This document shows, piece by piece, positions 43,303-57,600 of a stretch of 64,000 nucleotides of DNA. The notes under the pieces are model-generated. The model searched no databases and had not been told where the DNA came from. It was given only the letters and a program-made list of their open reading frames with translations. Each line of letters starts with the position of its first letter. Position 1 is the stretch's first letter. Source of the DNA: an uncultured Syntrophomonadaceae bacterium (GTDB lineage: Bacteria; Bacillota; Dethiobacteria; DTU022); assembly GCA_964390725.1 (NCBI GenBank), contig CAYMIW010000010.1, positions 1,721 through 65,720 of the forward strand, given 5' to 3'. The translations under genes were made by a program, and so were the position numbers.

Positions 43303-44034
43303 TTGCCAAATCGGATTAAAGATGAAGCTAAAGATCGCATATTAAGTGCATCAATAACTTTATTCTCTGAAAAGGGCTTTGATGGAACCCGTGTTAATGA
43401 AATAGCACAAGAGGCAGAGGTAAATAAGGCGCTTATATACTATTACTTTAAAAACAAGGAAGATATACTTGATCATTTAATTGAGAATCTCTTTACCGAG
43501 TTAACCGGGCTATCCCTTCAGTTTATTGGCGATAATGTGGTCAGAATGATTAAAGACAGCGAACTGGACATCAAGGCTGACCGGTTTCATTTCAGTAATA
43601 AACAGGCGCTGGGAAAGTTCTTGGAACAGACAGATATATATATTGAAAGACTTATAGATTACGCTATTGAAAGACGGCACATCCTGAGGATTCTCTTACT
43701 TGAATCACTAAAGAAACGTAAACACCAGAATGGTTTGTTCCGCTTCATGGAGATGACATACAACAGCGACTCCAACCCTCTCTATAAAACAATAAAAGAA
43801 GCTGACAGTGATTATAATGTTCCGGACAGTACTCCCCTGGTAAAATTTTTCTTTGGCCTGGTGCCGATCATAAATTTTGCCGCCTATTATGACGACTGGC
43901 TTAAAACAGATTTGGAAATTGATGAAAAGAGGCTGCGCGGCACATTTGCCGGTATATACCGGTTTATGATTAAAGGGTTTGTTTCAGATACTGACATCTT
44001 GATCAATGGTATGCTGGATGGCTGCCTTGATTAG
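43303..44034 (+). CDS. TetR/AcrR-family regulator
   Basis: ILSASITLFSEKGFDGTRVNEIAQEAEVNKALIYYYFKNKEDIL. Confidence 0.92.
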   Translation: MPNRIKDEAKDRILSASITLFSEKGFDGTRVNEIAQEAEVNKALIYYYFKNKEDILDHLIENLFTELTGLSLQFIGDNVVRMIKDSELDIKADRFHFSNKQALGKFLEQTDIYIERLIDYAIERRHILRILLLESLKKRKHQNGLFRFMEMTYNSDSNPLYKTIKEADSDYNVPDSTPLVKFFFGLVPIINFAAYYDDWLKTDLEIDEKRLRGTFAGIYRFMIKGFVSDTDILINGMLDGCLD

Positions 44035-44086
44035 CTGTTCAAGGGTTAAAAGTGCTGAGAAGGGGAACAAAAAAATTTGGGACAAT

Positions 44087-44102
44087 TTAACCGTTTGGTT
44101 AA
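44087..44102 (+). promoter_or_regulatory. Palindromic operator upstream of the radical SAM gene
   Basis: TTAACC-GTTT-GGTTAA; 12/15 identical to the site upstream of tetR. Confidence 0.6.
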
Positions 44103-44274
44103 TAAGTGAATATTCAGTTATTCCGGTCCATGCTCTTTTCTTTGTAGTTTAAACTATTGTTGTTTCGGCGAAAGAGGGTGGTTGAATTGTTGGCCGGCGA
44201 GCATGTTTGAAAGGTGCTTAATGAATTTGCCCGGGAGGTATTTAAAAAGTTGTTGCTTGTAAGGAGGTATTAAA

Positions 44275-45636
44275 ATGTCTTTCGAATCAGTTAAAAAAAT
44301 TGCAGCCGAGTTTGCCATTGACAGAGTTGTAAACTATGTTTCTCAAAACCCGGCTCAGAATATAATGACCCTGATGGATTTCGCCGGGCGGGTAGCTAAT
44401 CAACCTGATCAAAAAGAAAACATCAATAAGCTCAAAGAGCATTTTAAGCATAATCCGCTTATATTTGAGCAGGCCAGGCGAGTGGTGAAAAACCCCAAAA
44501 TGCTTAAAAAACTAATGATTAATTGGGTGGCAAACAATGAACTGGCTGGTAGAAGTATTCGAGAAGAACATGCCAGGAAACTTGGCGTGTCTGTGCCAAG
44601 CCTGATCCTGATAGACCCAACATCAGCATGCAACCTGCGTTGTGAGGGCTGCTGGGCGGGAGAATATAAAAAAACAGACAGCCTGGATCCTGAACTGCTT
44701 GACCGTATTTTCCGTGAAGCCAGGGAACTTGGTATATTCTGGATAGTTTTATCCGGAGGAGAACCTTTTGCTTATAAGCCCCTGCTGGATGTTGTTGCAG
44801 ATCATCCTGATCTAGTCTTTATGGCTTACACCAACGGGACCCTTATTGATGAAAAAACTGCCGACCGCCTTGCCGATCTGGCCAATTTATCTCCAGCCTT
44901 TAGTCTCGAGGGTTGGCGCGAACAGACTGATGCGCGACGCGGGGACGGTGTTTTTGATAAAGTGATGCGATCAATGGACTTACTCAGTGAACGCGGAGTT
45001 TTCTTCGGCGTGTCGGTAACAGCCACCAGGGATAATGTTGACACTCTTTTTAGTGATGATTATATTGACTTTCTGGTTGATAAGGGAGCTGTTTACGAGT
45101 GGTGTTTTCATTACATTCCCATTGGCCGTAATCCTAATACGAATCTAATGTTAACGCCTGATCAGCGGGCTTGGTTAGCCAACAGGGTTCCTGAACTTCG
45201 CCGGGAAAAACCGATCATGATAGCTGATTTTTGGAATGATGGTGAAGCTACCCGTGGTTGCATTGCCGGTGGAAGAATGTATTTTCATATCAATGCCCAG
45301 GGCGATGTTGAACCTTGTGCCTTTGCCCACTTCGCAGCCGATAACATAAAAGATAAAAGCTTGAAAGATGTACTCCAGAATCCGCTTTTTAAATCATTTC
45401 AAAAACGTCAGCCTTTTAATGATAATCATCTGGCACCATGCCCGATCATTGACAATCCCCAGGCCTTGCGTGATATTGTAATTGAGAGTAAGGCCAGGGC
45501 TACCCACCAGGGTGCTGCTGAAGTGCTGGAAGGGCCTGTAGCTGTTCACTTGGATCAGATTTCATTGCAGTGGAAAGAAAAAGCCGATAAAATTAAGGCC
45601 GCCAGAGAACAGGCAAAAGAACCTGCACATGCCTGA
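44275..45636 (+). CDS. Radical SAM/SPASM-type enzyme with N-terminal helical extension
   Basis: IDPTSACNLRCEGC, SGGEPF, TNGT, DFWNDG..GCIAGG..HINAQGDVEPCAF..PCPIIDNP. Confidence 0.9.
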   Translation: MSFESVKKIAAEFAIDRVVNYVSQNPAQNIMTLMDFAGRVANQPDQKENINKLKEHFKHNPLIFEQARRVVKNPKMLKKLMINWVANNELAGRSIREEHARKLGVSVPSLILIDPTSACNLRCEGCWAGEYKKTDSLDPELLDRIFREARELGIFWIVLSGGEPFAYKPLLDVVADHPDLVFMAYTNGTLIDEKTADRLADLANLSPAFSLEGWREQTDARRGDGVFDKVMRSMDLLSERGVFFGVSVTATRDNVDTLFSDDYIDFLVDKGAVYEWCFHYIPIGRNPNTNLMLTPDQRAWLANRVPELRREKPIMIADFWNDGEATRGCIAGGRMYFHINAQGDVEPCAFAHFAADNIKDKSLKDVLQNPLFKSFQKRQPFNDNHLAPCPIIDNPQALRDIVIESKARATHQGAAEVLEGPVAVHLDQISLQWKEKADKIKAAREQAKEPAHA

Positions 45637-45648
45637 TTTTGAAAGCTG

Positions 45649-45685
45649 AATAAAGGAGGCGGATTTGTTATCTGCCTCCTTTTAT
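45649..45685 (+). terminator. Intrinsic terminator after the radical SAM gene
   Basis: AAAGGAGGCGGAT-TTGTT-ATCTGCCTCCTTT followed by T-rich sequence. Confidence 0.8.
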
Positions 45686-45886
45686 TATTTCCGTATCCAT
45701 ATTCTAAAAAATTGATTGTTTGGATAACCGGTAAAATAAGCATACCTCAATGCCTTATTCCGCTGACAAGTTTTATGATGAAATATTTCGCAGTGTCGAA
45801 AAGGGGAGAAATTAATTACTAAAATATGTAAAGGTATAAAAGGGGACATGTCGAATTAAACTATAACCAATAACCGATATGGAGGC

Positions 45887-46426
45887 ATGAGTATGAAAAC
45901 TGCTTTAATGGCCGGCAGTAGGAAAAAGCGTTTACACTTATTAACGACGGCGGTATTTTTTGTTGCAGCAACACTGATTCTTGTTTCGCCTGTTATGGCG
46001 GCTCTGCATGGTGATGTCAATAGTGACGGCAGTATTGATGTTCAGGATGTAGCCCTGACCATGCGTCACGCCCTGGGCCTTGAAACACTGAACGACCTGC
46101 AGGGTTTTCTTGCTGATGTAAATGGTGACGGAATCGTCAATGTGCAGGATGTAAGCCAGGTTATGCAGAAATCGCTTGGTTTAATTGACAGTTTTACAGA
46201 TGCTCCGATTCCGGAAACTGACCTTGTTGATGATTTCATTTCGGCCCCTGGACTTTCTCCCGGAACAAAGATGATTGTGGTGACTCTTGCTGTTGAAAAC
46301 CAGGAGCAATACAGGGTTTTTATCGGTTCAAAAACCCTATATTACAGTGAATCAGTTGAAGGTTTCCTGGGCGAAGTTCCGGAAGACGATGCCCTGATTG
46401 AAAATGTAATTGTCTACAAAAAGTAG
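45887..46426 (+). CDS. Secreted dockerin-domain protein
   Basis: Signal peptide ending VMA; duplicated Ca loops GDVNSDGSIDVQD and ADVNGDGIVNVQD. Confidence 0.8.
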   Translation: MSMKTALMAGSRKKRLHLLTTAVFFVAATLILVSPVMAALHGDVNSDGSIDVQDVALTMRHALGLETLNDLQGFLADVNGDGIVNVQDVSQVMQKSLGLIDSFTDAPIPETDLVDDFISAPGLSPGTKMIVVTLAVENQEQYRVFIGSKTLYYSESVEGFLGEVPEDDALIENVIVYKK

Positions 46427-46444: not shown

Positions 46445-47146
46445 ATGTTCCAACCTGGTGATCCTGCTGAGGTAATTGAGAGATGCCACGGCTTTAAAGG
46501 TGAGTTGCAGCTGCAGCGACGCGGGCGGGAATATGAAATTATTTATAACGGAGTCTTTATTATGGCTACCTATAACGGTGCTTCGGAGAAAGCAGCTGTC
46601 AGGGATGCTCTGCAAAAGGCGGCTACCTCATGTGCCACTCCCTTAAAAGTATTGATCGGAGGGCTGGGGGTTGGGTTCAGCCTCAGGGAGGCTCTTGACT
46701 ATCCGGCGGTTTCGGATGTAACGGTGGTTGAACTGGAGCCTGCGGTCATAAAATGGAACCACAATGTACTGGCCGAAGTAAATGGTAATGCCCTGGCCGA
46801 TCCAAGAACCTTAATCCTTAACGATGATTTTCGGAAGGTTCTTCGGAACAAGGGAGGGCATCATTCCGGTAACCTATCCGGAAAGTTTCATGTAGTTATG
46901 GTCGACACTGATAACGGCAGCAGTTGGCTCAGCCTGCCTGATAATGCTGAGATCTACAGCGAGGATGGCCTTAGCTTGACCCTTAAGCGTCTTTATCCCG
47001 GAGGAGCCGCCTGTTTCTGGGCTGCCCGGCGGGAAGAAGAATTCGAAGAGAGGTTGAAGAAATATTTTCACCGGGTTCAGTTTCGCACTGTGCCGGAGAA
47101 GACCGGCCACGACGGCTGTTATTATCTAGCGCAGAAAGCACTTTGA
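46445..47146 (+). CDS. Spermidine synthase-like SAM-binding protein
   Basis: NGVFIM..SE, VLIGGLGVGFSL, VVELEPAVI, VMVDTDNG. Confidence 0.8.
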   Translation: MFQPGDPAEVIERCHGFKGELQLQRRGREYEIIYNGVFIMATYNGASEKAAVRDALQKAATSCATPLKVLIGGLGVGFSLREALDYPAVSDVTVVELEPAVIKWNHNVLAEVNGNALADPRTLILNDDFRKVLRNKGGHHSGNLSGKFHVVMVDTDNGSSWLSLPDNAEIYSEDGLSLTLKRLYPGGAACFWAARREEEFEERLKKYFHRVQFRTVPEKTGHDGCYYLAQKAL

Positions 47147-47181
47147 CAGGGTTAATTATTCAAAAAAACTGTAATTAATAT

Positions 47182-47217
47182 ACCCGGCGGGTTAGTAACT
47201 GTTACTTCTCGCCGGGT
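47182..47217. terminator. Hairpin between convergent genes
   Basis: ACCCGGCG..AGTAAC-T-GTTACT..CGCCGGGT. Confidence 0.6.
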
Positions 47218-47711
47218 TATAATTTTTTTAGCATTAGATAATCTGTTTCCTGCTCCTCAAACACAGTAAAACCAAGTCTTTTATATAAGTTAAAAGCCCG
47301 GTTCAGTTTGTCTACACTAAGAGAAATGTTTTTGTAACCCCTATGCTTAAGTTCATCAAAGAGTGCTGTCATGAGGCCCGTGCCTATGCCCTGTCCGCGG
47401 TAAAGTTCATTAACGGCAAAACATAGTTCCGGAGTGTCGGCATCTATAAAACCATATGCCCCCTTTTCAGCACTCTCAAACTGCCTGGTCCAGGCAGCGC
47501 CTGCCTCAAGGCCATTTACTTCGGCAATAAAACCGGCGTCGGTATCTTTCATCCAATCGTCAAGGTAGATATGTAAATCCGGTTCGTCAACAATGGAAAA
47601 GGGAGGCCTTTCCTGACCCTCGGGAATGAACATGGCCTGGTAAAGCATTTCCCTTAAAAAGGGATAATCTTCTGCTTTTGCTTTCCTGACATTGAATAGT
47701 ATCTTTTTCAT
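47217..47711 (-). CDS. GNAT acetyltransferase
   Basis: PELCFAV..YRGQGIGTGLM..SLSVDKLNRA..LYKRLGF. Confidence 0.9.
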   Translation of the reverse strand: MKKILFNVRKAKAEDYPFLREMLYQAMFIPEGQERPPFSIVDEPDLHIYLDDWMKDTDAGFIAEVNGLEAGAAWTRQFESAEKGAYGFIDADTPELCFAVNELYRGQGIGTGLMTALFDELKHRGYKNISLSVDKLNRAFNLYKRLGFTVFEEQETDYLMLKKL

Positions 47712-47850
47712 TTAGTTCACCTGGTTGGTTAATATGTAGAATGGTTACTTTTATTATGCACAAGAGCATGTAACCATTTCTTTTAATAGCACACTATAAA
47801 AGTATAACTCCGGGAAGTTTACGTCAAGGGAAAATTTTTTTGAAAAACAC

Positions 47851-47901
47851 TTGACAACAATATAAACACGTTTATAATAATAAGTAGTTTATAGTATAAA
47901 C
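47851..47901 (+). promoter_or_regulatory. Sigma-A promoter with two palindromes sharing a half-site
   Basis: TTGACA (47851-47856), 16 nt, TATAAT (47873-47878); TATAAAC-AC-GTTTATA at 47861-47876 and GTTTATA-G-TATAAAC at 47887-47901. Confidence 0.75.
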
Positions 47902-47924
47902 CAGATTGGTGGGAGGTTTTTGTT

Positions 47925-48605
47925 ATGGAAAACCAGTTCGACGGGCAGGGAAACGACCTGAAACAGCTTTATGAAGATGTTGCCTACATCAAAAAAGCAG
48001 TATCTAAAAAAAGCAACATACTTAATTTCATGGAGATCAGCCAGGCCCTGCGGTTTGTGGCTCTTATATCGGGCTTACTGATTATTGTAACGGCAACAAT
48101 TCTGTATTTTCTCATTCAGCAGTATGGTTCTTTTGCAATGTTTCCCGATCGGATCAGGTTTTTTTTCTATCTATACCTTGTCCTGGCAGTTGCATTCATT
48201 GCCGTGATCAAGTTGCGTAATTTCTTAAATAAAGCCAGGGAAATAAACAGCCGCATTACTTTAGGCGAACTCTTTGAAGAAGTTTATACAGTCCGGTTCA
48301 TTGAAATCATAATACCTTTCCTGGTTGTCTTAATCGCAGTACCTGTGTATTTCAATTCCATGGGGCTGAATCAGCTTATCTTGCCTTTCACAGCCCTGCT
48401 TTTCGGGTTACTCTGTTTTGCAATTTCCGGTCTTCTTCAACTTAGAATAGCGCTTTTTCTCGCCGGTTGGCTGGTTTTATGCGGGCTGTTCTTTCTATTC
48501 GCGGGTCGGGGGACAGACCAGTTGATCCAGCTAATAGTTAGTTTTGGTTGCGGCCTTTTGATCATGGGATTATCAGGCTATATCGGTTTGCCGAAAAAGG
48601 AGTAA
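47925..48605 (+). CDS. Multi-pass membrane protein
   Basis: About 6 TMs; N-terminal LYEDVAYIKK helix; first gene of the regulator-ABC operon. Confidence 0.7.
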   Translation: MENQFDGQGNDLKQLYEDVAYIKKAVSKKSNILNFMEISQALRFVALISGLLIIVTATILYFLIQQYGSFAMFPDRIRFFFYLYLVLAVAFIAVIKLRNFLNKAREINSRITLGELFEEVYTVRFIEIIIPFLVVLIAVPVYFNSMGLNQLILPFTALLFGLLCFAISGLLQLRIALFLAGWLVLCGLFFLFAGRGTDQLIQLIVSFGCGLLIMGLSGYIGLPKKE

Positions 48606-48609
48606 TTAC

Positions 48610-48951
48610 ATGACCGATAAAAAAATGCCCAGACCGGAAATAGATAAAATAATCCATGAGCGAAGTCGCCTGCTTGTATTAAGCTACCTTGCAGCAGGGG
48701 ATGCAGCAGTTGTTTCCTTTACAGAGCTGAAGGATAAGCTTGAGTTAACTGCCGGCAATCTATCGGTGCAGTTGCGCAATCTGGAGGATGCCGGTTATAT
48801 AAAAATCAATAAACGTATCGCAGGCCGTAAGCCGGTTACCGATATTGCCTTAACTGCTTCCGGTATGAAAGCATTAACCGGTTACCTTGATGAAATGGAG
48901 ACCCTGATCAACCGGGTTCGGAATGTTAGTGATAAAGGTGGGAGAGATTGA
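48610..48951 (+). CDS. Small winged-helix regulator (ArsR/MarR-like)
   Basis: IIHERSRLLVLSYL..SFTELK..LTAGNLSVQLRNLEDAGYI. Confidence 0.88.
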   Translation: MTDKKMPRPEIDKIIHERSRLLVLSYLAAGDAAVVSFTELKDKLELTAGNLSVQLRNLEDAGYIKINKRIAGRKPVTDIALTASGMKALTGYLDEMETLINRVRNVSDKGGRD

Positions 48952-48952
48952 A

Positions 48953-49810
48953 ATGATAGAAGTTAGGAACCTCAGTCACGATTACAGCGGCAAAGGGAAT
49001 TACGCGGTTAAAAAAATATCCTTTCAGATTGACCGCGGTGAAATATTTGGTTTTCTCGGGCCCAGTGGGGCAGGCAAGAGCACCGTACAGAATATCATGA
49101 CTGGCCTGTTAAAGCTGCAGGCAGGTGAAGTAACCTATGGAAAAGTGCCGATCGGGAATATGAGAAAACAGTTTTTTAATCGTATCGGTGTTTCGTTTGA
49201 GCATCCCAATCTTTATGCTAAACTCAGTGGTTATGAAAATCTACGCTATTTTGCAGGCCTTTTTGATGTTCCCACCCGTTCTCCCCTGGAACTTCTTGAC
49301 CTGGTAGGTCTGCGCGAATCAGCTTATAAAAAAGCGGCTGCTTACTCAAAAGGGATGAAACAGCGCCTGGTGTTTGCCCGGGCCCTGATTAATGATCCCG
49401 AAATCCTTTTTCTCGATGAACCAACCGCCAGCCTCGACCCTGTTACAGCGGCAAATGTTAAGGATATTATTCTGGAGAAAAAGAAAAGGGGGGTAACTAT
49501 ATTTCTGACCACCCATAACATGTATACCGCTGAAGAGATCTGCGACCGGGTAGCTTTTCTGAATGACGGTAATATAGTGGCAATGGATACTCCCCGTGAT
49601 TTGAAACTTCAGTATGGAGAAAAATCGGTTAGGGTTGAATACAGGGAAGATAATAAAGTTAAAACTGATCTATTCTTTCTTTCCAGGGACGAAGACCGTT
49701 TAGCATTACAAAATTTGGTTGGCCATAAAGAGATCCAGACCCTGCATTCCCAGGAAGCAAGCCTTGAGCAGATCTTTATTCGCTTAACCGGAAGGGGGCT
49801 GCAGGCGTGA
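48953..49810 (+). CDS. ABC transporter ATP-binding protein
   Basis: GPSGAGKST, YSKGMKQRL, LFLDEPT; start ATG 48953. Confidence 0.92.
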   Translation: MIEVRNLSHDYSGKGNYAVKKISFQIDRGEIFGFLGPSGAGKSTVQNIMTGLLKLQAGEVTYGKVPIGNMRKQFFNRIGVSFEHPNLYAKLSGYENLRYFAGLFDVPTRSPLELLDLVGLRESAYKKAAAYSKGMKQRLVFARALINDPEILFLDEPTASLDPVTAANVKDIILEKKKRGVTIFLTTHNMYTAEEICDRVAFLNDGNIVAMDTPRDLKLQYGEKSVRVEYREDNKVKTDLFFLSRDEDRLALQNLVGHKEIQTLHSQEASLEQIFIRLTGRGLQA

Positions 49811-50847
49811 TCCGGCGCTTTTTTGCTCTCTTTAGCCAGGATTTAGTAATAGCATCCCGCAATGCCTTAATGTGGGTGTTGCTGGGAGCTCTAATCATAA
49901 TAATATTAACTGTCAGGCTGGTTATACCAGCCGACTTTGAAATGGGTGAAACCCAGTATTTTTATGACAAAAGTGCCCAGGGCTATCTTGAAACTGCTGC
50001 CAGACTGGAGGGCTTTGATCAAGAGCGGATTATGGGCAGTTTACCTGAACTGGAGCAGGTTGTTGCGGCAGATCAAAACTCAATCGGGATTATCTTTGAA
50101 GATGATGAGGCAGTGCCACGGGTAACAATCATCCATCACGGGGCCATTAGCCTGGAGAACCGTAACCTGATTGCCGCCGCAATAGAGGATTCGCTGAGGC
50201 CATATTATGGTTTTTCCGGACAACCCGATTTACAGGTAAGTTATTTAAGACCTGCGGCAGAAAAAGTACCTCAAAACCAGAATGCCGTTCCGCCCCTGCT
50301 GGCTTTTGAAGTTATCGTGAACGGGTTTATGATGGTAGCTGTGCTTTTATTCCAGGAAAAAATGGAGGGCACAATCAAGGCCTACCGGGTTAGTCCGGGT
50401 GGTCCTTCCATATATGTGATCTCAAAAGCTGCTGTTTTCGCCCTGATCGGAATTTTTTACGGACTGTTGATGGTAATACCGACAATAGGTTTTTCCTTTA
50501 ACATTTTACTGTTCCTCATCGTGTTATTTTTCGGTTCCCTTATATATACATGGTTGGGGTTGGCCGTTGCCGCTTTTTTCAATAATATCTCTGAATGGCT
50601 TTTCATTGGCATAGCATTACTGATGATTAATATGACCCCGGTAATATCGTATGGCTGGCCTTCTTTTGCTCCCCGCTGGCTTACCTATATACCCTCTTAC
50701 CCAATCATTTTTGGCTTGCGTGAAATATTGTTTCCCTCCGGTCGTTCCCTGGCTGAGTTGTTTATTTTTCTTCCCCTGGCTGCTCTGGTTGCTTACCTGG
50801 TTTGTTATCTGGTAGTGAAGAATAAACTAATGAGGGAGGGCAGATAA
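49807..50847 (+). CDS. ABC-2 type permease
   Basis: FQEKMEGTIKAYRVSP; resembles fluoroquinolone-export-type permeases. Confidence 0.8.
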   Translation: MIRRFFALFSQDLVIASRNALMWVLLGALIIIILTVRLVIPADFEMGETQYFYDKSAQGYLETAARLEGFDQERIMGSLPELEQVVAADQNSIGIIFEDDEAVPRVTIIHHGAISLENRNLIAAAIEDSLRPYYGFSGQPDLQVSYLRPAAEKVPQNQNAVPPLLAFEVIVNGFMMVAVLLFQEKMEGTIKAYRVSPGGPSIYVISKAAVFALIGIFYGLLMVIPTIGFSFNILLFLIVLFFGSLIYTWLGLAVAAFFNNISEWLFIGIALLMINMTPVISYGWPSFAPRWLTYIPSYPIIFGLREILFPSGRSLAELFIFLPLAALVAYLVCYLVVKNKLMREGR

Positions 50848-51852
50848 ATGAGACAGATTATTAATATTATGAAACAGGATCTTGCAACAGCTCTGCGCGA
50901 TAATATTCTTCTTTACATGATTATTGCACCGCTGTTTCTTGCTCTAGTAATTAAAGCCTTCCTGCCCTCAATTGAATCGGCTGGCTTAAACCTTGCCGTT
51001 TCGGCAGACCTTGACAGTGAAATAATTGCCGGGTTGAATAATTATGCAGTGGTGGAGCTGCTCGAAGATAACCAGGCTGTCACCGGGCGGGTTGAAATGA
51101 TCGATGCCGTACCCGGGGTAATAACCGAAAACGGGCAAATAATTCTCCTGCTGGAAGGTAATGAGCCGGAGGATATTATTGATGCTGCCAGGGTGGCGCT
51201 CACAGCAGTTATTGAAGGCGAAACCATAATCAGCTTTGAATATAGAAGCCTTGATGAATCGGCCTCACTGATGCGCGAGATTATCACGCTTTCCCTGATG
51301 ATGTTGGCCCTCTTGTTGGGTGGTGTGGTGTCGGGGTTCAATATCATTGATGAGAAAGACAGTAAAGCGGTAAATGCCCTGGCGGTAACCCCATTAACTC
51401 TGTCTCAGTATATAACCGCCAGAACAGTTTTGGCTTTTCTTATCACTGCGATAATTACCTCCGGTACCGCCACAATCCTCTTTGGTCTTGGAATAGACTA
51501 TTTAAAGCTGGTTGCAGTACTGCTGGCATCGTCGCTGATTATAGCCTTTTTTTGCCTGGTTGTCGGGGGTTTTTCCAATAACCAGGTCAGCGCTATTGCT
51601 GTTATAAAAGTCCTGATGCCTGCTTACATGGTTATCCCCATTGCATCACTGTTTGTGTCGGAAAAATGGCAAACAGCATTTTACCTGTTTCCCAACTATT
51701 GGCAGTTTCAGATGCTAAGAGGGCTCTTCTTTGGAGAAAATTTGGTTGCGCCTTTTTGGTGGTCACTCTTGCTAACGCTTGTTTTAAGTGCAGTTCTTTT
51801 AGTTGTCATGGTAAAAATAACAGGCGGCAGGCTAATGCCCCGGGGGAGGTGA
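50848..51852 (+). CDS. ABC-2 type permease
   Basis: IIDEKDSKAVNALAVTPLT; paralog of the upstream permease. Confidence 0.8.
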   Translation: MRQIINIMKQDLATALRDNILLYMIIAPLFLALVIKAFLPSIESAGLNLAVSADLDSEIIAGLNNYAVVELLEDNQAVTGRVEMIDAVPGVITENGQIILLLEGNEPEDIIDAARVALTAVIEGETIISFEYRSLDESASLMREIITLSLMMLALLLGGVVSGFNIIDEKDSKAVNALAVTPLTLSQYITARTVLAFLITAIITSGTATILFGLGIDYLKLVAVLLASSLIIAFFCLVVGGFSNNQVSAIAVIKVLMPAYMVIPIASLFVSEKWQTAFYLFPNYWQFQMLRGLFFGENLVAPFWWSLLLTLVLSAVLLVVMVKITGGRLMPRGR

Positions 51853-51856
51853 TCAC

Positions 51857-51979
51857 ATGGAATGGTACTGGTGGGTGCTAATAGCAGTTGCCGTTGTGGT
51901 TGTTGGTTATTTGAAGCTGAAAATATTTAACTCAATTATGGCAAAAAGGAAGAAGGCAGAACAGGAAATTGAGGATTAA
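51857..51979 (+). CDS. Small single-pass membrane protein, 40 aa: MEWYWWVLIAVAVVVVGYLKLKIFNSIMAKRKKAEQEIED
   Basis: GGAGGTGA RBS, ATG 51857, TM followed by a basic/acidic tail, stop just before the terminator. Absent from the ORF track. Confidence 0.7.
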   Translation: MEWYWWVLIAVAVVVVGYLKLKIFNSIMAKRKKAEQEIED

Positions 51980-51990
51980 GCAAAAGAAAC

Positions 51991-52017
51991 GGGCCGGCAT
52001 TTTAATAATGCCGGCTC
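51991..52017. terminator. Bidirectional terminator between the ABC and feo operons
   Basis: GGGCCGGCAT-TTTAATA-ATGCCGGCTC. Confidence 0.7.
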
Positions 52018-52072
52018 TTGTATTTTACAGGCAACATACCTTTTTTTACATAATCGATTACCTGTTATTGCC

Positions 52073-52231
52073 TTACTCTTTAAAATCCGGGCAGCTGCAG
52101 TTTTGTCCGCCGGCCTTACTGTAAGGGCAGCCGGGGCATTTTACTCCCTTTTTATTGTCGGATACTATTTTGGCAACTGCCACACCAATTATTGATATTA
52201 CTAATAAAAATAGCAGAATATTGCCCAGCAT
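52073..52231 (-). CDS. FeoB-associated Cys-rich membrane protein (52 aa)
   Basis: MLGNILLFLLVISIIGVAVAKIVSDNKKGVKCPGCPYSKAGGQNCSCPDFKE; TAATG overlap with the feoB stop and GGAGG RBS. Absent from the ORF track. Confidence 0.85.
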   Translation of the reverse strand: MLGNILLFLLVISIIGVAVAKIVSDNKKGVKCPGCPYSKAGGQNCSCPDFKE

Positions 52232-54225
52232 TATACCGCCTCCTTGATTGTTTTTTCGCTTTGTTGTTTTTTACTGCGAATTAAAGAAGCTATAACAGCG
52301 GCGAAAACCAGGATGGCAACTAACCCGGGAATAACCCCGCTGCCGAAACTGCCGGTTGTAATTAATGTACCTGCCTGGTAAACAAAATACGCAACTGTAT
52401 AACCAACACCGAATTGAAATCCTATCCCGGCCCAAAGCCATTTTTTACTGTCCATTTCGGCGTTCATTGCCCCGATAGCAGCAAAACAGGGAGGGGTGAA
52501 CAGGTTAAACATCAGGTAAGCGAGGGCAGCCACTGAAGTTAACCCCATTACAGTTGCCACATCGCCGGCTCCGCTGATCAGTTCAAACTCTTCAGTATCG
52601 ATAAAGTTTGTTATCCCGTAAACAACAGCCAGGGTTCCGACAACATTTTCCTTTGCGATAAAGCCGGTAATTGCTGCTGCTGCAAGCTGCCACACCCCAA
52701 AACCGAGCGGGATGAAAAGGAGAGCAAACGGGCCGGCAATCCCGGCGAGGATGCTGGTGCTTTCCATTCCTTCCTCTACAACCTGGAAGCTCCAGTTAAA
52801 GGTTTGCATTATATGCACGGCGGCGTTACAGACCAGGATTATTGTAGCTGCCTTGACGATAAAGGCTTTTGCCCTCGAAAACATCGAGACAAGGGCCCGC
52901 TTAATGCTGGGCAGGCGGTATTCTGGCAGCTCCATGATGAAATAAGCAGGTGAAGAACTGTCTCTGGTGATTTTGCGAACGAGCAGGGCTCCGACAATAA
53001 TAATGCCGATAGCTACGAAATACATGGAGGTTCCTACCCAGGCTGCGTCACCAAAGAATACCCCGGCAAATAAAGCAATTATCGGCAGCTTGGCTCCACA
53101 GGGCATAAAAGGAGTCAGCATGGCTGTGGTGCGGCGTTGACGGTCATCACGTATGGTTCGTGTTGCCATTACCCCGGGGATGGCGCAGCCGGTACCAATA
53201 ACCATGGGGATAATAGACTTTCCGGAGAGCCCCACTTTTTTCAGGTAGCGATCCATCACCATTGCAACCCGGGCCATGTAACCGCTGTCCTCAAGCAGGG
53301 CCAGCAGAAAGAAAAGGACCATAATCAGGGGTAAAAAACCCATAACTGCTCCAACCCCGCCAATGATGCCGTCGAGAAATAACGAACTCAGCACGGGGGA
53401 AAGATCACTGCCCAGCAGCCCTGCAGCAAATTCATATAGTGAATCAATCCAGCCGACCAGGATATCGGCCAGCAGGGGGCCGACATAGGTTTGTGACAGA
53501 GAAAAAATCACATATATGATTGCAGCAAAAATTGGTATGCCCAGGACCTTGTTAGCGACAATACGGTCAATTGCATCCTGGCGGGTCTGTTTATGACTGG
53601 CTACAGCCCGATTTTCAACTTCGTCAACCAGTTTCTCTACGAAAACAAATCTTTCTCGATCATTTTCTTCAATACTTTCCTGATCCCGAAGGTCAAATAG
53701 CTCACTTTTAAACGGCGCAGTCTGTTTATCTCCAGAACGGTCGGCCGCTGCCCTGAGTAGTTCGGCCAGGCCTTTGCCCTCAGTTGAAGATGTTTCGACC
53801 ACCGGGCAGCCGAGCCGGTTCGAAAGCTCGTCCAGGTTAATCTGAATGTTCCTGCTCTCCAGGAGGTCACTCTTGTTAAGAGCTACCACTACAGGAATTC
53901 CCAGTTCCAGGAGCTGGGTAGTAAAGAAGAGGCTCCTGCTCAGGTTGGTGGTGTCTACAATGTTAATAATAACATCAGGTTTTTCATTCAGAACAAAATT
54001 CCGGGTAATGCTTTCCTCAGAACTAAAAGGTGAAATTGAATAAGCGCCGGGAAGGTCAACCACCCTTATAATTTCTTTCCCCCGGTAGAGTGATTTCTTA
54101 ATGTCACCTTCCTTCTTGGCGATAGTAACGCCGGGCCAGTTGCCCACGTGCTCAATTTTTCCTGTGATAGCGTTAAATAGTGTGGTTTTTCCGCTGTTTG
54201 GATTTCCGGTTAGTGCAATTCGCAT
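52231..54225 (-). CDS. feoB: Ferrous iron transporter FeoB
   Basis: GNPNSGKTT, GNWPGVT, DLPGAYS, NKSD, LEDSGYMAR, PFMPCGAKLP, PCFA. Confidence 0.97.
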   Translation of the reverse strand: MRIALTGNPNSGKTTLFNAITGKIEHVGNWPGVTIAKKEGDIKKSLYRGKEIIRVVDLPGAYSISPFSSEESITRNFVLNEKPDVIINIVDTTNLSRSLFFTTQLLELGIPVVVALNKSDLLESRNIQINLDELSNRLGCPVVETSSTEGKGLAELLRAAADRSGDKQTAPFKSELFDLRDQESIEENDRERFVFVEKLVDEVENRAVASHKQTRQDAIDRIVANKVLGIPIFAAIIYVIFSLSQTYVGPLLADILVGWIDSLYEFAAGLLGSDLSPVLSSLFLDGIIGGVGAVMGFLPLIMVLFFLLALLEDSGYMARVAMVMDRYLKKVGLSGKSIIPMVIGTGCAIPGVMATRTIRDDRQRRTTAMLTPFMPCGAKLPIIALFAGVFFGDAAWVGTSMYFVAIGIIIVGALLVRKITRDSSSPAYFIMELPEYRLPSIKRALVSMFSRAKAFIVKAATIILVCNAAVHIMQTFNWSFQVVEEGMESTSILAGIAGPFALLFIPLGFGVWQLAAAAITGFIAKENVVGTLAVVYGITNFIDTEEFELISGAGDVATVMGLTSVAALAYLMFNLFTPPCFAAIGAMNAEMDSKKWLWAGIGFQFGVGYTVAYFVYQAGTLITTGSFGSGVIPGLVAILVFAAVIASLIRSKKQQSEKTIKEAV

Positions 54226-54243
54226 TTTTTTCCTCCCTGTAAT

Positions 54244-54265
54244 TTAGTTAGACAAGGCTAACTAA
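54244..54265. promoter_or_regulatory. DtxR/MntR-type operator between feoA and feoB
   Basis: TTAGTTAG-ACAAGG-CTAACTAA, perfect 8-bp inverted repeat. Confidence 0.75.
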
Positions 54266-54285
54266 AAGTATAAAAAAATTCCGCT

Positions 54286-54576
54286 CTATAAAATAATAGC
54301 CCGGGCTAAATCTTCATCAATGCTGTATCTCGCCCCTTTTACATGAATAACAAAATTCTGGGCCAGGGCTGAAATGACTGTAACCATTTCACCTTCATAG
54401 CAGCCAAGGGTAAATAGAAAGTCTTTAACAGCTTGATCGTCAGTATTAATTTCCTTAATCGTATAAGGAAGGTTGGTATCGGCATCTGTAAGGTTAAACC
54501 TGCCTTCTTTACATTGCTTAAAACTTTTTACCGCCGTTTTTCTTTTAAATAATTTGCCTGCTACAGCCAGTTCCAT
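54286..54576 (-). CDS. feoA: FeoA
   Basis: FLFTLGCYEGEMV..GARYSIDEDLA; start 54576 after AAGGAGG. Confidence 0.85.
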   Translation of the reverse strand: MELAVAGKLFKRKTAVKSFKQCKEGRFNLTDADTNLPYTIKEINTDDQAVKDFLFTLGCYEGEMVTVISALAQNFVIHVKGARYSIDEDLARAIIL

Positions 54577-54596
54577 TTTGAACCTCCTTAAGTGCA

Positions 54597-54962
54597 TTAT
54601 TTATTCAGGTATTGCTTAATTGCATTTAGCATGTTTTCTGTTATAACATGTTCCATACGGCAGGCATTTGCCACCGCTTCACCAGGTGATAAATCCAGTG
54701 ACTTTTCCAGGAAACGTGTGATCAGGTTGTGTTTCCTGTATATTTTTTCTGATACAGCCTTCCCTTTCTCTGTTAGGGTTACAGGTCTGTATGATTCGTT
54801 GTTAATTAAGCCTTCTTCTTCAAGGTGGCTCATTGCCTTGGTTACACTCGGCTTTGTAACCTTTAAATCCCTGGCGATATCTGCCACGTGAGCGTGGCCG
54901 TGTTCCTTTTCCAGGATATAGATAGTTTCGAGATACATCTCGCTCGATTCATTGTATTCCAA
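54597..54962 (-). CDS. DtxR/MntR-family metal-dependent repressor (no SH3 tail)
   Basis: SSEMYLETIY..DIARDLKVTKPSVT..LTEKG..KH..FL..ACRMEHVI; TTG 54962 after a G-run RBS. Confidence 0.9.
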   Translation of the reverse strand: MEYNESSEMYLETIYILEKEHGHAHVADIARDLKVTKPSVTKAMSHLEEEGLINNESYRPVTLTEKGKAVSEKIYRKHNLITRFLEKSLDLSPGEAVANACRMEHVITENMLNAIKQYLNK

Positions 54963-54986
54963 AACAACCCCCCCTAAACCAAACAT

Positions 54987-55035
54987 TGTTAACCAAGACT
55001 AACATTATTATAATTATTATGTCCACTGCTGTCAA
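54987..55035 (-). promoter_or_regulatory. Consensus promoter and second DtxR-type box
   Basis: TTGACA (55035-55030), 17 nt, TATAAT (55012-55007); TGTTAACCAAGACTAACA at 54987-55004, core 13/16 identical to the feoA-feoB box. Confidence 0.8.
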
Positions 55036-55277
55036 TAAAAAATTTTAATTATGATTAGAACTGCCATTAATACCAGGTAAACGTTTATGTCGCGTTATTA
55101 CATTTAAAAGAAGGGTATATAAGCTGCTGTAAAAAAGATTTAACGACCCTTAAAATAATCAGACGCTGCCCCGGTTGCACCAGAATCAGAACACTGCTAT
55201 ACTAGCGCCATGGCAGTAAATGATTAAACATCAGCAACAATTTATTTTTCAAATACAGGGCAGCAGGTGGTAATCTT

Positions 55278-56063
55278 TTGGAATACTACAGGATTCTTGG
55301 CTTAGAAAAAAACGCAACAATAATTGAAATAAAAAGAGCATATCGTAAAATGGCCAGGGAATATCACCCGGATCTTAACTCCGGGAAAGATGCTGAAAAA
55401 CACTTTATCCGCATTAAAGCTGCTTACGATACTTTATGCGATCCATTAAAAAGAGAAAGCTATGACAACGGCTTATCCTATGCAAAAAAGCAATATAATT
55501 ATAACAATAACTATAAAAACGAACATAATTCCCGGCCTGAACCTAATTCTGCCAAAAATACAGCTTATAAAAAGAAAGATGAACCTCTCAAAAAAGCTGA
55601 TGAAGACCTTTCAAGGCTAATTACATTTACCCTTGGTAAAGACGAATATGCTTTAAATATTGATCAGGTTCTGGGTATTGTAGGTTCTGCAACAATAAAG
55701 GAACCGGAGCAACCAAACAGTGCTCTTGATGGTATAATCCATACCCGTGGAGAAGATTGGCCTGTAATTGATTTGGCCAGGAGTTTTGGTATAAACGGGG
55801 ATGAAAATGATGGGCCGGCAAAAATTATCCTGGCGGAGATAGAAGGTATTAAAGTAGGTTTTCTAGTTAATAAGGTGTCCCTTGTAACGGACCTCGCCAG
55901 CGCGATGATTCGGGATATGCCGAACAGCCCCCTGGGAGACACATTTCTTTCTTTGAAGATGGCCATGGTGGGAGAACGGATGATAATAATTCTTGATCTT
56001 GATCATATTTTATCGCCGGCAGTTATATCCGCCCTGAGAAGCCTCGGGCAAAACGGGGGTTAA
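55278..56063 (+). CDS. J-domain (DnaJ) protein fused to a CheW-like domain
   Basis: YYRILGL..EIKRAYRKMAREYHPDLN..F..IKAAYDTLCDP..R..YD; C-terminal LITFTLGKDEYALNIDQV..GIIHTRGEDWPVIDL..F..VGFLVNKV..IIILDLDHIL. Confidence 0.85.
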   Translation: MEYYRILGLEKNATIIEIKRAYRKMAREYHPDLNSGKDAEKHFIRIKAAYDTLCDPLKRESYDNGLSYAKKQYNYNNNYKNEHNSRPEPNSAKNTAYKKKDEPLKKADEDLSRLITFTLGKDEYALNIDQVLGIVGSATIKEPEQPNSALDGIIHTRGEDWPVIDLARSFGINGDENDGPAKIILAEIEGIKVGFLVNKVSLVTDLASAMIRDMPNSPLGDTFLSLKMAMVGERMIIILDLDHILSPAVISALRSLGQNGG

Positions 56064-56131: not shown

Positions 56132-57007
56132 ATGTCAGGTCAGATTAGTAATGAGATGCAGGCAGAATTGTTAAAAGATCAGCAGGATGAAATAACCGCT
56201 TACTATCTCTATAAAAAGATTGCCGATTTTGTTAAAGATGAAGATAATCGGACTATCATCAGGGCGGTAGCTGATGACGAGCTGAAACACTACCAGACCC
56301 TGAAAAAACTTACCGGAATAGAGCTAAAACCGCAGCGATTAAAAGTTTTTATTTTTTACTGGATTACCAGGCTCCTGGGTTTAACTTTTGGAATTAAACT
56401 TCTGGAAAAAGCGGAATCCCAGGCGATAACCTCTTATGGCGTTAAGGAACGGCAAGTGCAGGGTCTCAATGAGATTATTGCCGATGAAGAGAGGCATGAA
56501 ACCGAGTTGATAAACATGATCAACGAGGAGAGGCTGCATTACATGGGTTCGGTTGTGCTGGGCCTCAATGATGCCCTGGTGGAATTAACCGGAGCGCTGG
56601 CCGGCTTTACCTTTGCCTTCCAGGATACAAAGCTGATTGCCCTGACCGGCCTGATTACTGGTATAAGTGCTTCTTTTTCCATGGCTGCCAGTGAATACCT
56701 GTCAAAAAAACAGGAGGGTGGGCAGGATGCTCTTAAGTCGGCGTTATATACCGGCACTGCATACGTTATTACGGTTGCGTTGCTTGTTTTACCTTTTTTG
56801 CTGCTAAAGAACCCTTTCATCAGTCTTGCTGCAACACTTGTGGTTGCGGTGGTGGTTATTTTTCTATTTAATTTATATGTTTCTATCGCTAATGATTACA
56901 GCGTGAAGAAAAGATTTTTAGAGATGGCAGTTATTTCGCTTGGTGTAGCCGGAATTTCCTTTGTAATCGGAATTATTGTGAGGAATTTTTTCGGAATTGA
57001 TATATAA
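56132..57007 (+). CDS. Ferritin-like (erythrin) domain fused to VIT1/CCC1 (MbfA-like)
   Basis: E..Y..DELKH..E..DEERHE diiron pattern; VVLGLNDALVE..SMAASEYLS. Confidence 0.85.
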   Translation: MSGQISNEMQAELLKDQQDEITAYYLYKKIADFVKDEDNRTIIRAVADDELKHYQTLKKLTGIELKPQRLKVFIFYWITRLLGLTFGIKLLEKAESQAITSYGVKERQVQGLNEIIADEERHETELINMINEERLHYMGSVVLGLNDALVELTGALAGFTFAFQDTKLIALTGLITGISASFSMAASEYLSKKQEGGQDALKSALYTGTAYVITVALLVLPFLLLKNPFISLAATLVVAVVVIFLFNLYVSIANDYSVKKRFLEMAVISLGVAGISFVIGIIVRNFFGIDI

Positions 57008-57567: not shown

Positions 57568-57600
57568 AAAACCGGGCCTGGTAAGCAGGCCCGGTTTTTT
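57568..57600. terminator. Bidirectional intrinsic terminator
   Basis: AAAACCGGGCCTG-GTAAG-CAGGCCCGGTTTT. Confidence 0.85.

Follow-up and report, generated by a model that had tools for sequence, protein, structure and literature searches.

The DNA analysed in this study was a 64-kb stretch from an uncultured Syntrophomonadaceae bacterium (hereafter the window, meaning the whole of this stretch), and the gene under study, J-CheW, encodes a protein in which a J-domain is joined to a CheW-like domain. The gene is located at 55278–56063 on the plus strand, stop codon included, and encodes 261 amino acids (aa) from a TTG start in a single unbroken frame of the open reading frame list. The protein comprises, all on the plus strand, a J-domain (residues 2–63, 55281–55466), an Asn/Lys-rich linker (residues 64–110, 55467–55607), and a CheW-like domain (residues 111–259, 55608–56054). 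The HPD motif of the J-domain corresponds to H30-P31-D32 (55365–55373), and R157-G158-E159 of the CheW-like domain is encoded at 55746–55754. This one-frame arrangement had been put forward in an earlier reading made from the letters of the DNA (the sequence-only reading), and it was confirmed by Pfam searches and by the peptide motifs TFTLGKDEYALNIDQV, GIIHTRGEDWPVIDL, VGFLVNKV, and IILDLDHIL, all of which were found in the protein.

In the Pfam scan, DnaJ (PF00226) and CheW (PF01584) were the sole models matched. The DnaJ model was aligned to residues 2–63 over all 63 model positions with 79.7 bits (E=1.7e-22, cut-off 27.8), and the CheW model was aligned to residues 114–246 with 73.9 bits (E=1.3e-20, cut-off 23.5), with model positions 2–135 of 138 aligned and 134 of the 138 covered. 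Both matches are far above chance level. The NCBIfam models gave partial matches to the J-domain (DnaJ, TopJ, CbpA, and HscB models), those of TopJ and DnaJ being confined to it, and a sub-threshold match for CheW. As these matches were partial or sub-threshold, no curated named family includes J-CheW. Neither a zinc finger (CXXCXGXG) nor the DnaJ C-terminal client-binding domain was detected in the protein by Pfam, and the same scan gave no Response_reg domain; the C-terminus extends 15 residues past the end of the CheW model.

The three-dimensional structure was predicted with AlphaFold2 from an alignment of 29 sequences. The J-domain was modelled as four helices (residues 2–7, 15–29, 39–54, and 56–63) with a predicted local distance difference test (pLDDT) value of approximately 90, and residues 111–259 formed a confident beta-rich domain. 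The linker residues 66–108 had a pLDDT of <50 and were predicted to be disordered. When the J-domain was compared with the PDB using Foldseek, a template modelling (TM) score of 0.88 was obtained to the DnaK-bound J-domain of DnaJ (5nro_B) and 0.90 to 7jtk_y. For the CheW-like domain, CheW chains ranked at the top, including T. tengcongensis CheW (2qdl, E=2e-12, TM 0.80) and T. maritima CheW (2ch4_Y, TM 0.81), and CheA P5 domains ranked lower. A phmmer search against the PDB CheWs gave E-values of 2.7e-13 for 2qdl and 2.2e-10 for 1k0s and 2ho9. The closest matches of the C-terminal domain in both structure and sequence were, accordingly, CheW proper and not CheA P5, and the C-terminus passed as CheW by the Pfam model as well as by the fold.

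The linker contained 9 Asn and 9 Lys among 49 residues (64–112) and only one Gly or Phe, and the Gly+Phe count in the relatives ranged from 0 to 9; no Gly/Phe-rich (G/F) region was present. Over the family, the linker was 33–56 aa long and variable in sequence, and a basic Y-K-[RK]-K patch directly N-terminal of the CheW domain was semi-conserved. Judged by this domain content, i.e., a J-domain, a non-G/F linker, and a CheW-like domain, J-CheW is a class-III (type C) J-protein. The same class had been assigned in the sequence-only reading, and the lack of a G/F region, a zinc finger, and a DnaJ C-terminal domain agreed with it.

Occurrence and conservation of the fusion

Gene calls for the identical J-CheW protein were present on 9 contigs, which belong to separate assemblies in ENA, JGI, and NCBI. 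A further 18 contigs, among them one from an NCBI metagenome-assembled genome (MAG) labelled uncultured Syntrophomonadaceae, have an orthologue with 77% identity (locus L001) with the same genes around it. The fusion was kept in every one of the approximately 22 orthologues found, which were 38–77% identical and originated from many samples. Absence of the fusion in relatives and an assembly chimera had been named as outcomes that would overturn the sequence-only reading; all relatives found keep the fusion, and the 9 contigs carry the same protein.

Against the closest orthologue (77%), the ratio of nonsynonymous to synonymous substitution rates (dN/dS) was lowest in the J-domain (0.09), higher in the CheW domain (0.15), and highest in the linker (0.41). 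Purifying selection acts on both domains, the J-domain being the most strongly constrained part of the protein, and the tether can drift freely. The HPD motif was invariant among 15 aligned members and was present in 22 of 22 members. Moreover, the hallmarks of DnaK contact were conserved in the J-domain, namely, the basic face of helix II (K19, R23, and R27), F43, and KRxxYD.

The distribution of J-CheW was determined using three word-indexed searches of 5.8 billion protein clusters, in which the queries were the whole J-CheW protein, a profile built on its CheW part, and a full-family profile. Approximately 20 clusters with DnaJ and CheW were obtained, the members of which were 243–282 aa long and alignable to each other end to end. 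A scan of metagenome DNA added three more loci, all from one soda-lake sediment; this metagenome, SL_8KL_010_SED, holds three distinct J-CheW genes. An exhaustive HMMER search was conducted over 1.84 billion representatives, which are the 50% clusters of about 15 billion proteins, and two full-length J-CheW proteins were present among the best 150. The remainder of these 150 were proteins with 2–4 CheW domains and one protein with six J-domains. The latter (P0018, 679 aa) contains six near-identical tandem J-domains, each with an HPD, and no other domain. A scan of a genome collection with J-domain patterns gave at least one full-length genome match, a Syntrophomonadaceae MAG. The only taxon labels on the members were 'Dethiobacteria bacterium' and 'uncultured Syntrophomonadaceae'.

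With the full-length profile, no member scored below 340 bits, and the next protein, a single-domain J-domain protein, reached only 103 bits. Independent fusions of a J-domain and CheW were not found above the single-domain scores in the three word-indexed searches. They were also absent among the best 150 representatives, a search that weaker fusions under about 137 bits could escape. In full-text literature searches, the combination of a J-domain and CheW was not described among the matches listed. Vass et al. surveyed the architectures with CheW-like domains and counted 111 in Pfam, and the fusions given there were chemotaxis-related ones plus PAS only. The J-CheW fusion is real, conserved, and very rare. 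It is apparently undescribed, both as a class-III J-protein with a new targeting domain and, equally, as a new architecture of the CheW lineage.

Retained and altered features of the CheW-like domain

The CheW-like domain was compared with canonical CheW in an alignment of 22 J-CheW members, 83 stand-alone CheWs obtained from the searches, and E. coli CheW; the word index biases the stand-alone sample. A smaller alignment, of 15 stand-alone CheWs together with the CheWs of T. tengcongensis and T. maritima, was compared as well. Interface positions are given in E. coli numbering, and the residue lists were taken from PMC13098124 and from the study of R62 and E38 (PMC3828127). The identity of the J-CheW domain to the stand-alone CheWs found was ≤39% and mostly 27–35%.

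Three positions conserved in stand-alone CheW, namely, G57, R62, and G99 (G152, R157, and G194 in J-CheW), were retained in all 22 members. G63 (G158), also conserved in stand-alone CheW, was retained in 20 of 22. The two members with Ser at this position were soda-lake genes (L102, 3209–3979, and L103, 9535–10299), which have R-S-E in place of R-G-E. The hydrophobic residues of the receptor groove (I33, V36, I39, V105, and V108), conserved in the stand-alone proteins, were retained in 19–22 of the 22 members. The strand that follows R62-G63 was different: the pattern RG-x-[IV]-[IV]-P of stand-alone CheW was RG-E-[EDN]-[LW]-P in J-CheW (22/22), with Glu in every member at position 64, which is variable in stand-alone CheW. 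Position 97 was mostly Val in stand-alone CheW and Lys in 21 of 22 J-CheW members, and it is among four positions (96, 97, 117, and 122) that vary among the canonical CheWs of different phyla too. The 46–52 loop (xIPxxP) was also considered as a diverged CheA contact, but this was dropped because indels of 1–2 residues explain the differences and the window protein retains PxxP.

Compared with the CheWs of known structure (E. coli 2HO9/6S1K, T. maritima 1K0S/2CH4, and T. tengcongensis 2QDL), J-CheW has in common the two-barrel fold (TM 0.76–0.81), the four conserved residues, and the hydrophobic residues of the receptor groove. Unlike these, it has an N-terminal J-domain and a linker, the recoded strand, usually Gly at E38, replaced R117 and F122, and no che operon.

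Transcription signals and gene neighbourhood

A putative own promoter of J-CheW was read from the sequence at 55175–55216 on the plus strand, with TTGCAC (55175–55180) separated by 17 nt from an extended -10 element, TGcTATACT (55195–55203). A perfect palindrome, GCCATGGC, lies at 55207–55214, just past the extended -10, and may be an operator. A similar TGCTATGCTTGCGC was observed upstream of the J-CheW gene in the unrelated context of L098. The 34-nt block at 55183–55216 was 100% identical in the 77% relative, and the proportion of synonymous differences (pS) in the gene itself was 0.39–0.57. A Shine-Dalgarno sequence, AGGTGG, is located at 55265–55270 on the plus strand, 7 nt ahead of the TTG start. 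The arrangement CAGGTGGT-N-ATCT-N-TTG, with TTG as the start codon, was conserved in the window, L001, L005, and L095, and this conservation extends to members that are just 45–50% identical. Four database gene calls (P0003, P0017, P0175, and P0176) were extended upstream, so that the Shine-Dalgarno sequence was translated as '...GG..L'. The conserved TTG start and the Shine-Dalgarno sequence suggest that J-CheW is expressed modestly.

Upstream of J-CheW, no heat-shock element of the CIRCE or sigma-32 type was found, just the sigma-A-like extended -10 promoter, and the 291-nt upstream region gave no Rfam match for a riboswitch or leader at E<=1. Downstream, a bidirectional intrinsic terminator-like hairpin (57568–57598; 13-bp stem, 8 GC pairs, and T-runs on both strands) is located between a PNPOx-like gene and a convergent gene for a TM1586-type nitroreductase. 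Rfam gave weak spurious matches on this hairpin at 57.5 kb (L20 leader, E=0.002, under the gathering score). As no terminator-like site was found between J-CheW and this hairpin, J-CheW may be co-transcribed with the VIT1 and PNPOx-like genes, in a transcript that the hairpin would terminate.

The sequence-only reading had placed J-CheW between a feo operon and an erythrin-VIT1 gene, and this location was correct. Upstream, a divergent operon on the minus strand (52073–54986) encodes MntR/DtxR, FeoA, FeoB, and a FeoB-associated protein. Downstream, a rubrerythrin-like VIT1 (MbfA-like) gene is located at 56132–57007 on the plus strand, 68 nt from J-CheW, for which the Pfam VIT1 and NCBIfam MbfA matches were weak. 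No dnaK was found in the window. A likely operator and a consensus promoter of mntR-feoAB are situated upstream of the J-CheW promoter, at a distance of about 160 nt. The mntR-feoAB promoter is a perfect sigma-70 consensus (TTGACA, 17 nt, TATAAT) at 55007–55035 on the minus strand, directed into mntR/dtxR-feoA-feoB, and beside it lies an imperfect inverted repeat, TGTTAAC...ACTAACA, which is conserved in L001 and is likely a metalloregulator operator.

The neighbourhood of J-CheW was not conserved, and approximately nine contexts were distinguished. The mntR-feoAB genes upstream and VIT1 downstream were shared by the window and its 77% relative, and VIT1 adjoined J-CheW in these two only. In relatives with approximately 50% identity, a triad of genes for a TetR regulator, a radical SAM (rSAM)/SPASM enzyme, and a dockerin-like protein lies upstream and a GAF-PAS-GGDEF-HD-GYP gene lies downstream. 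Elsewhere, J-CheW was located between PHO4 and BipA, between aldolase and PucR, or beside thioredoxin-DsbH and dCache-GGDEF-HD genes, a flavodoxin-like gene, or a patatin-like gene. In one relative only, it was accompanied by a LapA-like gene and by a convergent gene for a methyl-accepting chemotaxis protein (MCP; MCPsignal and SBP_bac_3) approximately 300 nt downstream. Given this lack of conservation, the feo/VIT1 setting is an accident of the local context and says nothing about function. A conserved neighbourhood was rejected as a functional clue owing to the approximately nine differing contexts, and a general link to iron (feo, MntR/DtxR, and VIT1) was rejected as it was limited to the window and its closest relative. 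The J-CheW gene behaves as a free-standing unit.

Two further observations were made on the surroundings. The TetR/rSAM-SPASM/dockerin triad, which is directly upstream of J-CheW in the relatives of approximately 50% identity (L005, 2953–5962, and L008, 21–3630), is located 8.8 kb upstream in the window (43303–46426). Its rSAM/SPASM enzyme has 453 aa, with peptide or cofactor maturases as the best NCBIfam models, all far under the cut-off, and its dockerin/EF-hand-like protein has 177–179 aa. The window block at 46445–54986, with a spermine-synthase-like gene, a GNAT gene, a gene for a 226-aa unknown protein, a helix-turn-helix (HTH) gene with an ABC-2 transporter, and feoAB-mntR, looks like an insertion in the window lineage or a deletion in the other lineage. 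In addition, large GGDEF and HD-GYP proteins with GAF/PAS or dCache sensors are encoded 0.1–9 kb downstream of J-CheW in three differing neighbourhoods, i.e., past the window end at approximately 65370 (L089, from 20093), in L005 (6881–9664), and in L119 (6988–9204 and 12744–14268). This recurrence may be due to chance or may hint at a link to cyclic di-GMP (c-di-GMP).

Proposed function and alternative explanations

In class-III J-proteins such as HscB, DjlA, and auxilin, the non-J domain selects the place or the client, and the J-domain fires the DnaK ATPase there. It is tentatively proposed, as a plausible reading that falls short of probable, that J-CheW is a co-chaperone of this class that docks on chemoreceptor tips and recruits DnaK. 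J-CheW would be a low-abundance protein with the CheW-like domain as its client-targeting module, and this domain would dock on the cytoplasmic hairpin tips of methyl-accepting chemoreceptors through the hydrophobic groove that separates the two beta-barrels. Held by a flexible tether of approximately 45 residues, the J-domain would engage ATP-bound DnaK through the HPD loop and trigger ATP hydrolysis, after which DnaK would clamp a nearby segment of the receptor, CheA, or CheW. The outcome would be local Hsp70 work on chemosensory complexes, such as help in assembly, quality control, or prying apart for turnover or remodelling. As the surfaces for CheA-P5 and a neighbouring CheW are recoded, J-CheW would be expected on tips that are not locked in CheA/CheW rings, or competing for tips, and not as a structural member of the rings. 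We infer all of these binding events and the physiological outcome, and the array targeting is read from domain content only.

Several observations are in line with this proposal. Both domains are intact as judged by the Pfam cut-offs and the predicted folds, the hallmarks of DnaK contact and of CheW are kept, the closest matches of the CheW-like domain are CheW proper, and the disordered non-G/F linker without a zinc finger or a DnaJ C-terminal domain is the usual layout of specialised J-proteins. The conserved TTG start and the weak -35 element would fit a sub-stoichiometric, catalytic factor. Moreover, there are thin, indirect hints of chemosensory partners: one relative has the adjoining convergent MCP gene, and Dethiobacter alkaliphilus, which is in culture and belongs to the bacterial class given for one family member, is a motile organism with 52 COG-N genes (PMC5609068). 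A report on Myxococcus xanthus describes StkA, an Hsp70-family protein, as acting genetically with the Dif chemosensory pathway (PMC4319316). StkA/Dif resembles the proposed system in this genetic link of an Hsp70-family chaperone to an MCP/CheW/CheA-like pathway and differs from it in that separate proteins, a genetic link, and exopolysaccharide control are involved, and not a J-domain–CheW fusion.

The layout of J-CheW was also compared with that of other adaptors and J-proteins. CheV, which consists of a CheW-like domain and a receiver, is the established example of adaptor and effector combined at the receptor tip. Like CheV, J-CheW is an adaptor of the CheW lineage with a second functional module on a linker; however, this module is a phosphorylatable C-terminal receiver in CheV and an N-terminal Hsp70-activating J-domain in J-CheW. 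Auxilin/GAK, HscB, DjlA, and Mycoplasma TopJ likewise combine a J-domain with a dedicated targeting domain only and lack a G/F region, a zinc finger, and a DnaJ C-terminal domain, but we found a CheW-like targeting domain in no described J-protein. Auxilin brings Hsc70 to the ordered clathrin lattice for disassembly, and the mechanism proposed for J-CheW would follow the same logic, as an analogy only. Unlike in J-CheW, the J-domain of auxilin is C-terminal, and no sequence relationship exists beyond the J-domain. By this analogy, J-CheW might be the bacterial counterpart of auxilin, a dedicated adaptor through which DnaK would spend ATP on pulling out or taking apart receptor/CheA/CheW complexes or on licensing their assembly, which we regard as doubtful.

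A number of results weigh against docking on chemoreceptor arrays. Of the 83 stand-alone CheWs, 81 had Ile or Val at position 65, as did the three PDB proteins (E. coli, T. tengcongensis, and T. maritima), but all 22 J-CheW members had Glu, Asp, or Asn. I65 contacts CheA-P5 at interface 1 and cross-links in CheW-only rings (PMC13098124), and its change is the robust one of the recoded positions in the alignment. Position 38 was Glu in 73/83 stand-alone CheWs and Gly in 17/22 J-CheW members, and E38 of E. coli is the salt-bridge partner of R62 and implicated in receptor binding (PMC3828127); this is a secondary point only, as Gly was also present in 9 of the 15 nearest stand-alone CheWs in the smaller sample. 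At interface 2, R117 (mostly Arg/Lys in stand-alone CheW) was mostly Phe, and F122 (mostly Leu/Phe) was Asn, Ser, or Thr, both of them positions subject to the phylum-level variation described above. The hydrophobic contacts to CheA-P5 and the CheW ring (I65 and its neighbours; R117, E121, and F122) were not retained in J-CheW. Since I65, R117, and F122 are changed, the partner could be other than the canonical array. The CheW-only profile also separated a divergent subfamily, as no member scored below 172 bits and no stand-alone CheW above 84 bits. In the gene context, no MCP, CheA, CheY, CheB/R, or flagellar genes were found by Pfam among the called genes of the whole window, as the sequence-only reading had noted; none of the che, MCP, or flagellar genes stood beside J-CheW in 8 of the approximately nine contexts; and no promoter of the sigma-D/sigma-28 type was found upstream of J-CheW in the 8 loci checked.

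In our reading of these residues, the fold and the receptor groove would be preserved, and the faces for CheA/CheW and CheW-only rings rewritten. As the interface strand is recoded in all members, receptor-tip binding would be likelier than incorporation into a canonical CheA/CheW ring. The sequence-only reading was therefore upheld in part: the class-III architecture is right, the targeting of Hsp70 to chemosensory arrays that it put forward is plausible, and, given the recoding of the CheA-P5/CheW-ring strand, such targeting would probably not be by a place within canonical rings.

The recoding can also be explained by a CheW fold that was re-purposed, which we consider possible though rather unlikely. 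Array binding would then have been lost, and the J-domain would deliver another partner to DnaK, such as a receptor-like protein that is soluble, a divergent kinase with a P5 domain from a pathway other than motility, or an enzyme of c-di-GMP. The sharp separation of the subfamily from canonical CheW in the profile scores, the family-wide recoding of the partner-facing residues (E38, 64, 65, 96, 97, 117, and 122), the position of the gene in no che cluster among the contexts examined, and the recurrence of GGDEF/HD-GYP proteins in three differing contexts would all agree with such a change of partner. However, the groove hydrophobics and R62/G63/G57/G99 are retained, an MCP gene is the neighbour in one context, and we know of no characterised CheW-like domain outside chemosensory complexes. 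The proximity of GGDEF/HD-GYP genes is, moreover, limited to some of the contexts, and Firmicute genomes usually have many of these genes. The chemotaxis-related and PAS fusions of Vass et al. likewise argue against a partner of another kind. If the receptor is indeed the partner, J-CheW could alternatively couple proteostasis to behaviour, as a CheW competitor on receptors whose occupancy or effect is set by free DnaK; a coupling of this kind was the alternative named in the sequence-only reading. Folding stress would then alter the chemosensory output, in the manner of a DnaK/sigma-32-like titration, rather than DnaK remodelling the array. This coupling shares the domain evidence of the co-chaperone proposal, and the lost ring-forming interfaces suit a competitor or cap better than a scaffold. 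It is, however, purely conceptual, as no sequence feature separates it from the co-chaperone model, and the region upstream of J-CheW is without CIRCE or a sigma-32-type element; we consider it distinctly unlikely.

The source databases name J-CheW 'chemotaxis protein CheW' or leave it without a name, and the former would suit an ordinary CheW paralogue whose J-domain is a remnant or acts only as a tag for folding or solubility. This is very improbable because the J-domain is the most constrained part of the protein (dN/dS 0.09) and the HPD and the residues for DnaK contact are invariant over orthologues of 38–77% identity. Finally, chimeric assembly, faulty gene calling, and pseudogene decay were ruled out to practical certainty by the single frame, the 9 contigs of different assemblies, the fusion in all of the approximately 22 orthologues, and the purifying selection, and no point in support of such an origin was found.

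Few signalling assemblies of bacteria match chemoreceptor arrays in stability and order. Their construction, resizing, repair, and removal by the cell are poorly understood, and no chaperone factor dedicated to them is known to us. The co-chaperone proposal has a limited reach, as J-CheW is confined to a small uncultured lineage and its function is deduced. The protein is, nevertheless, a natural CheW variant with the groove hydrophobics kept and the ring faces apparently rewritten, which is useful for dissecting CheW interfaces, and it extends by a new one the range of targeting domains in specialised bacterial J-proteins. If its partner is not a chemoreceptor, J-CheW would be the first CheW fold at work outside chemosensory complexes. 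If the auxilin-like reading is true, it would represent the first known energy-driven turnover mechanism for otherwise ultrastable chemosensory arrays. A J-domain joined by nature to a CheW-like adaptor hints that Hsp70 can be directed to chemosensory complexes, and the 261-aa protein would provide a compact reagent for testing this idea.

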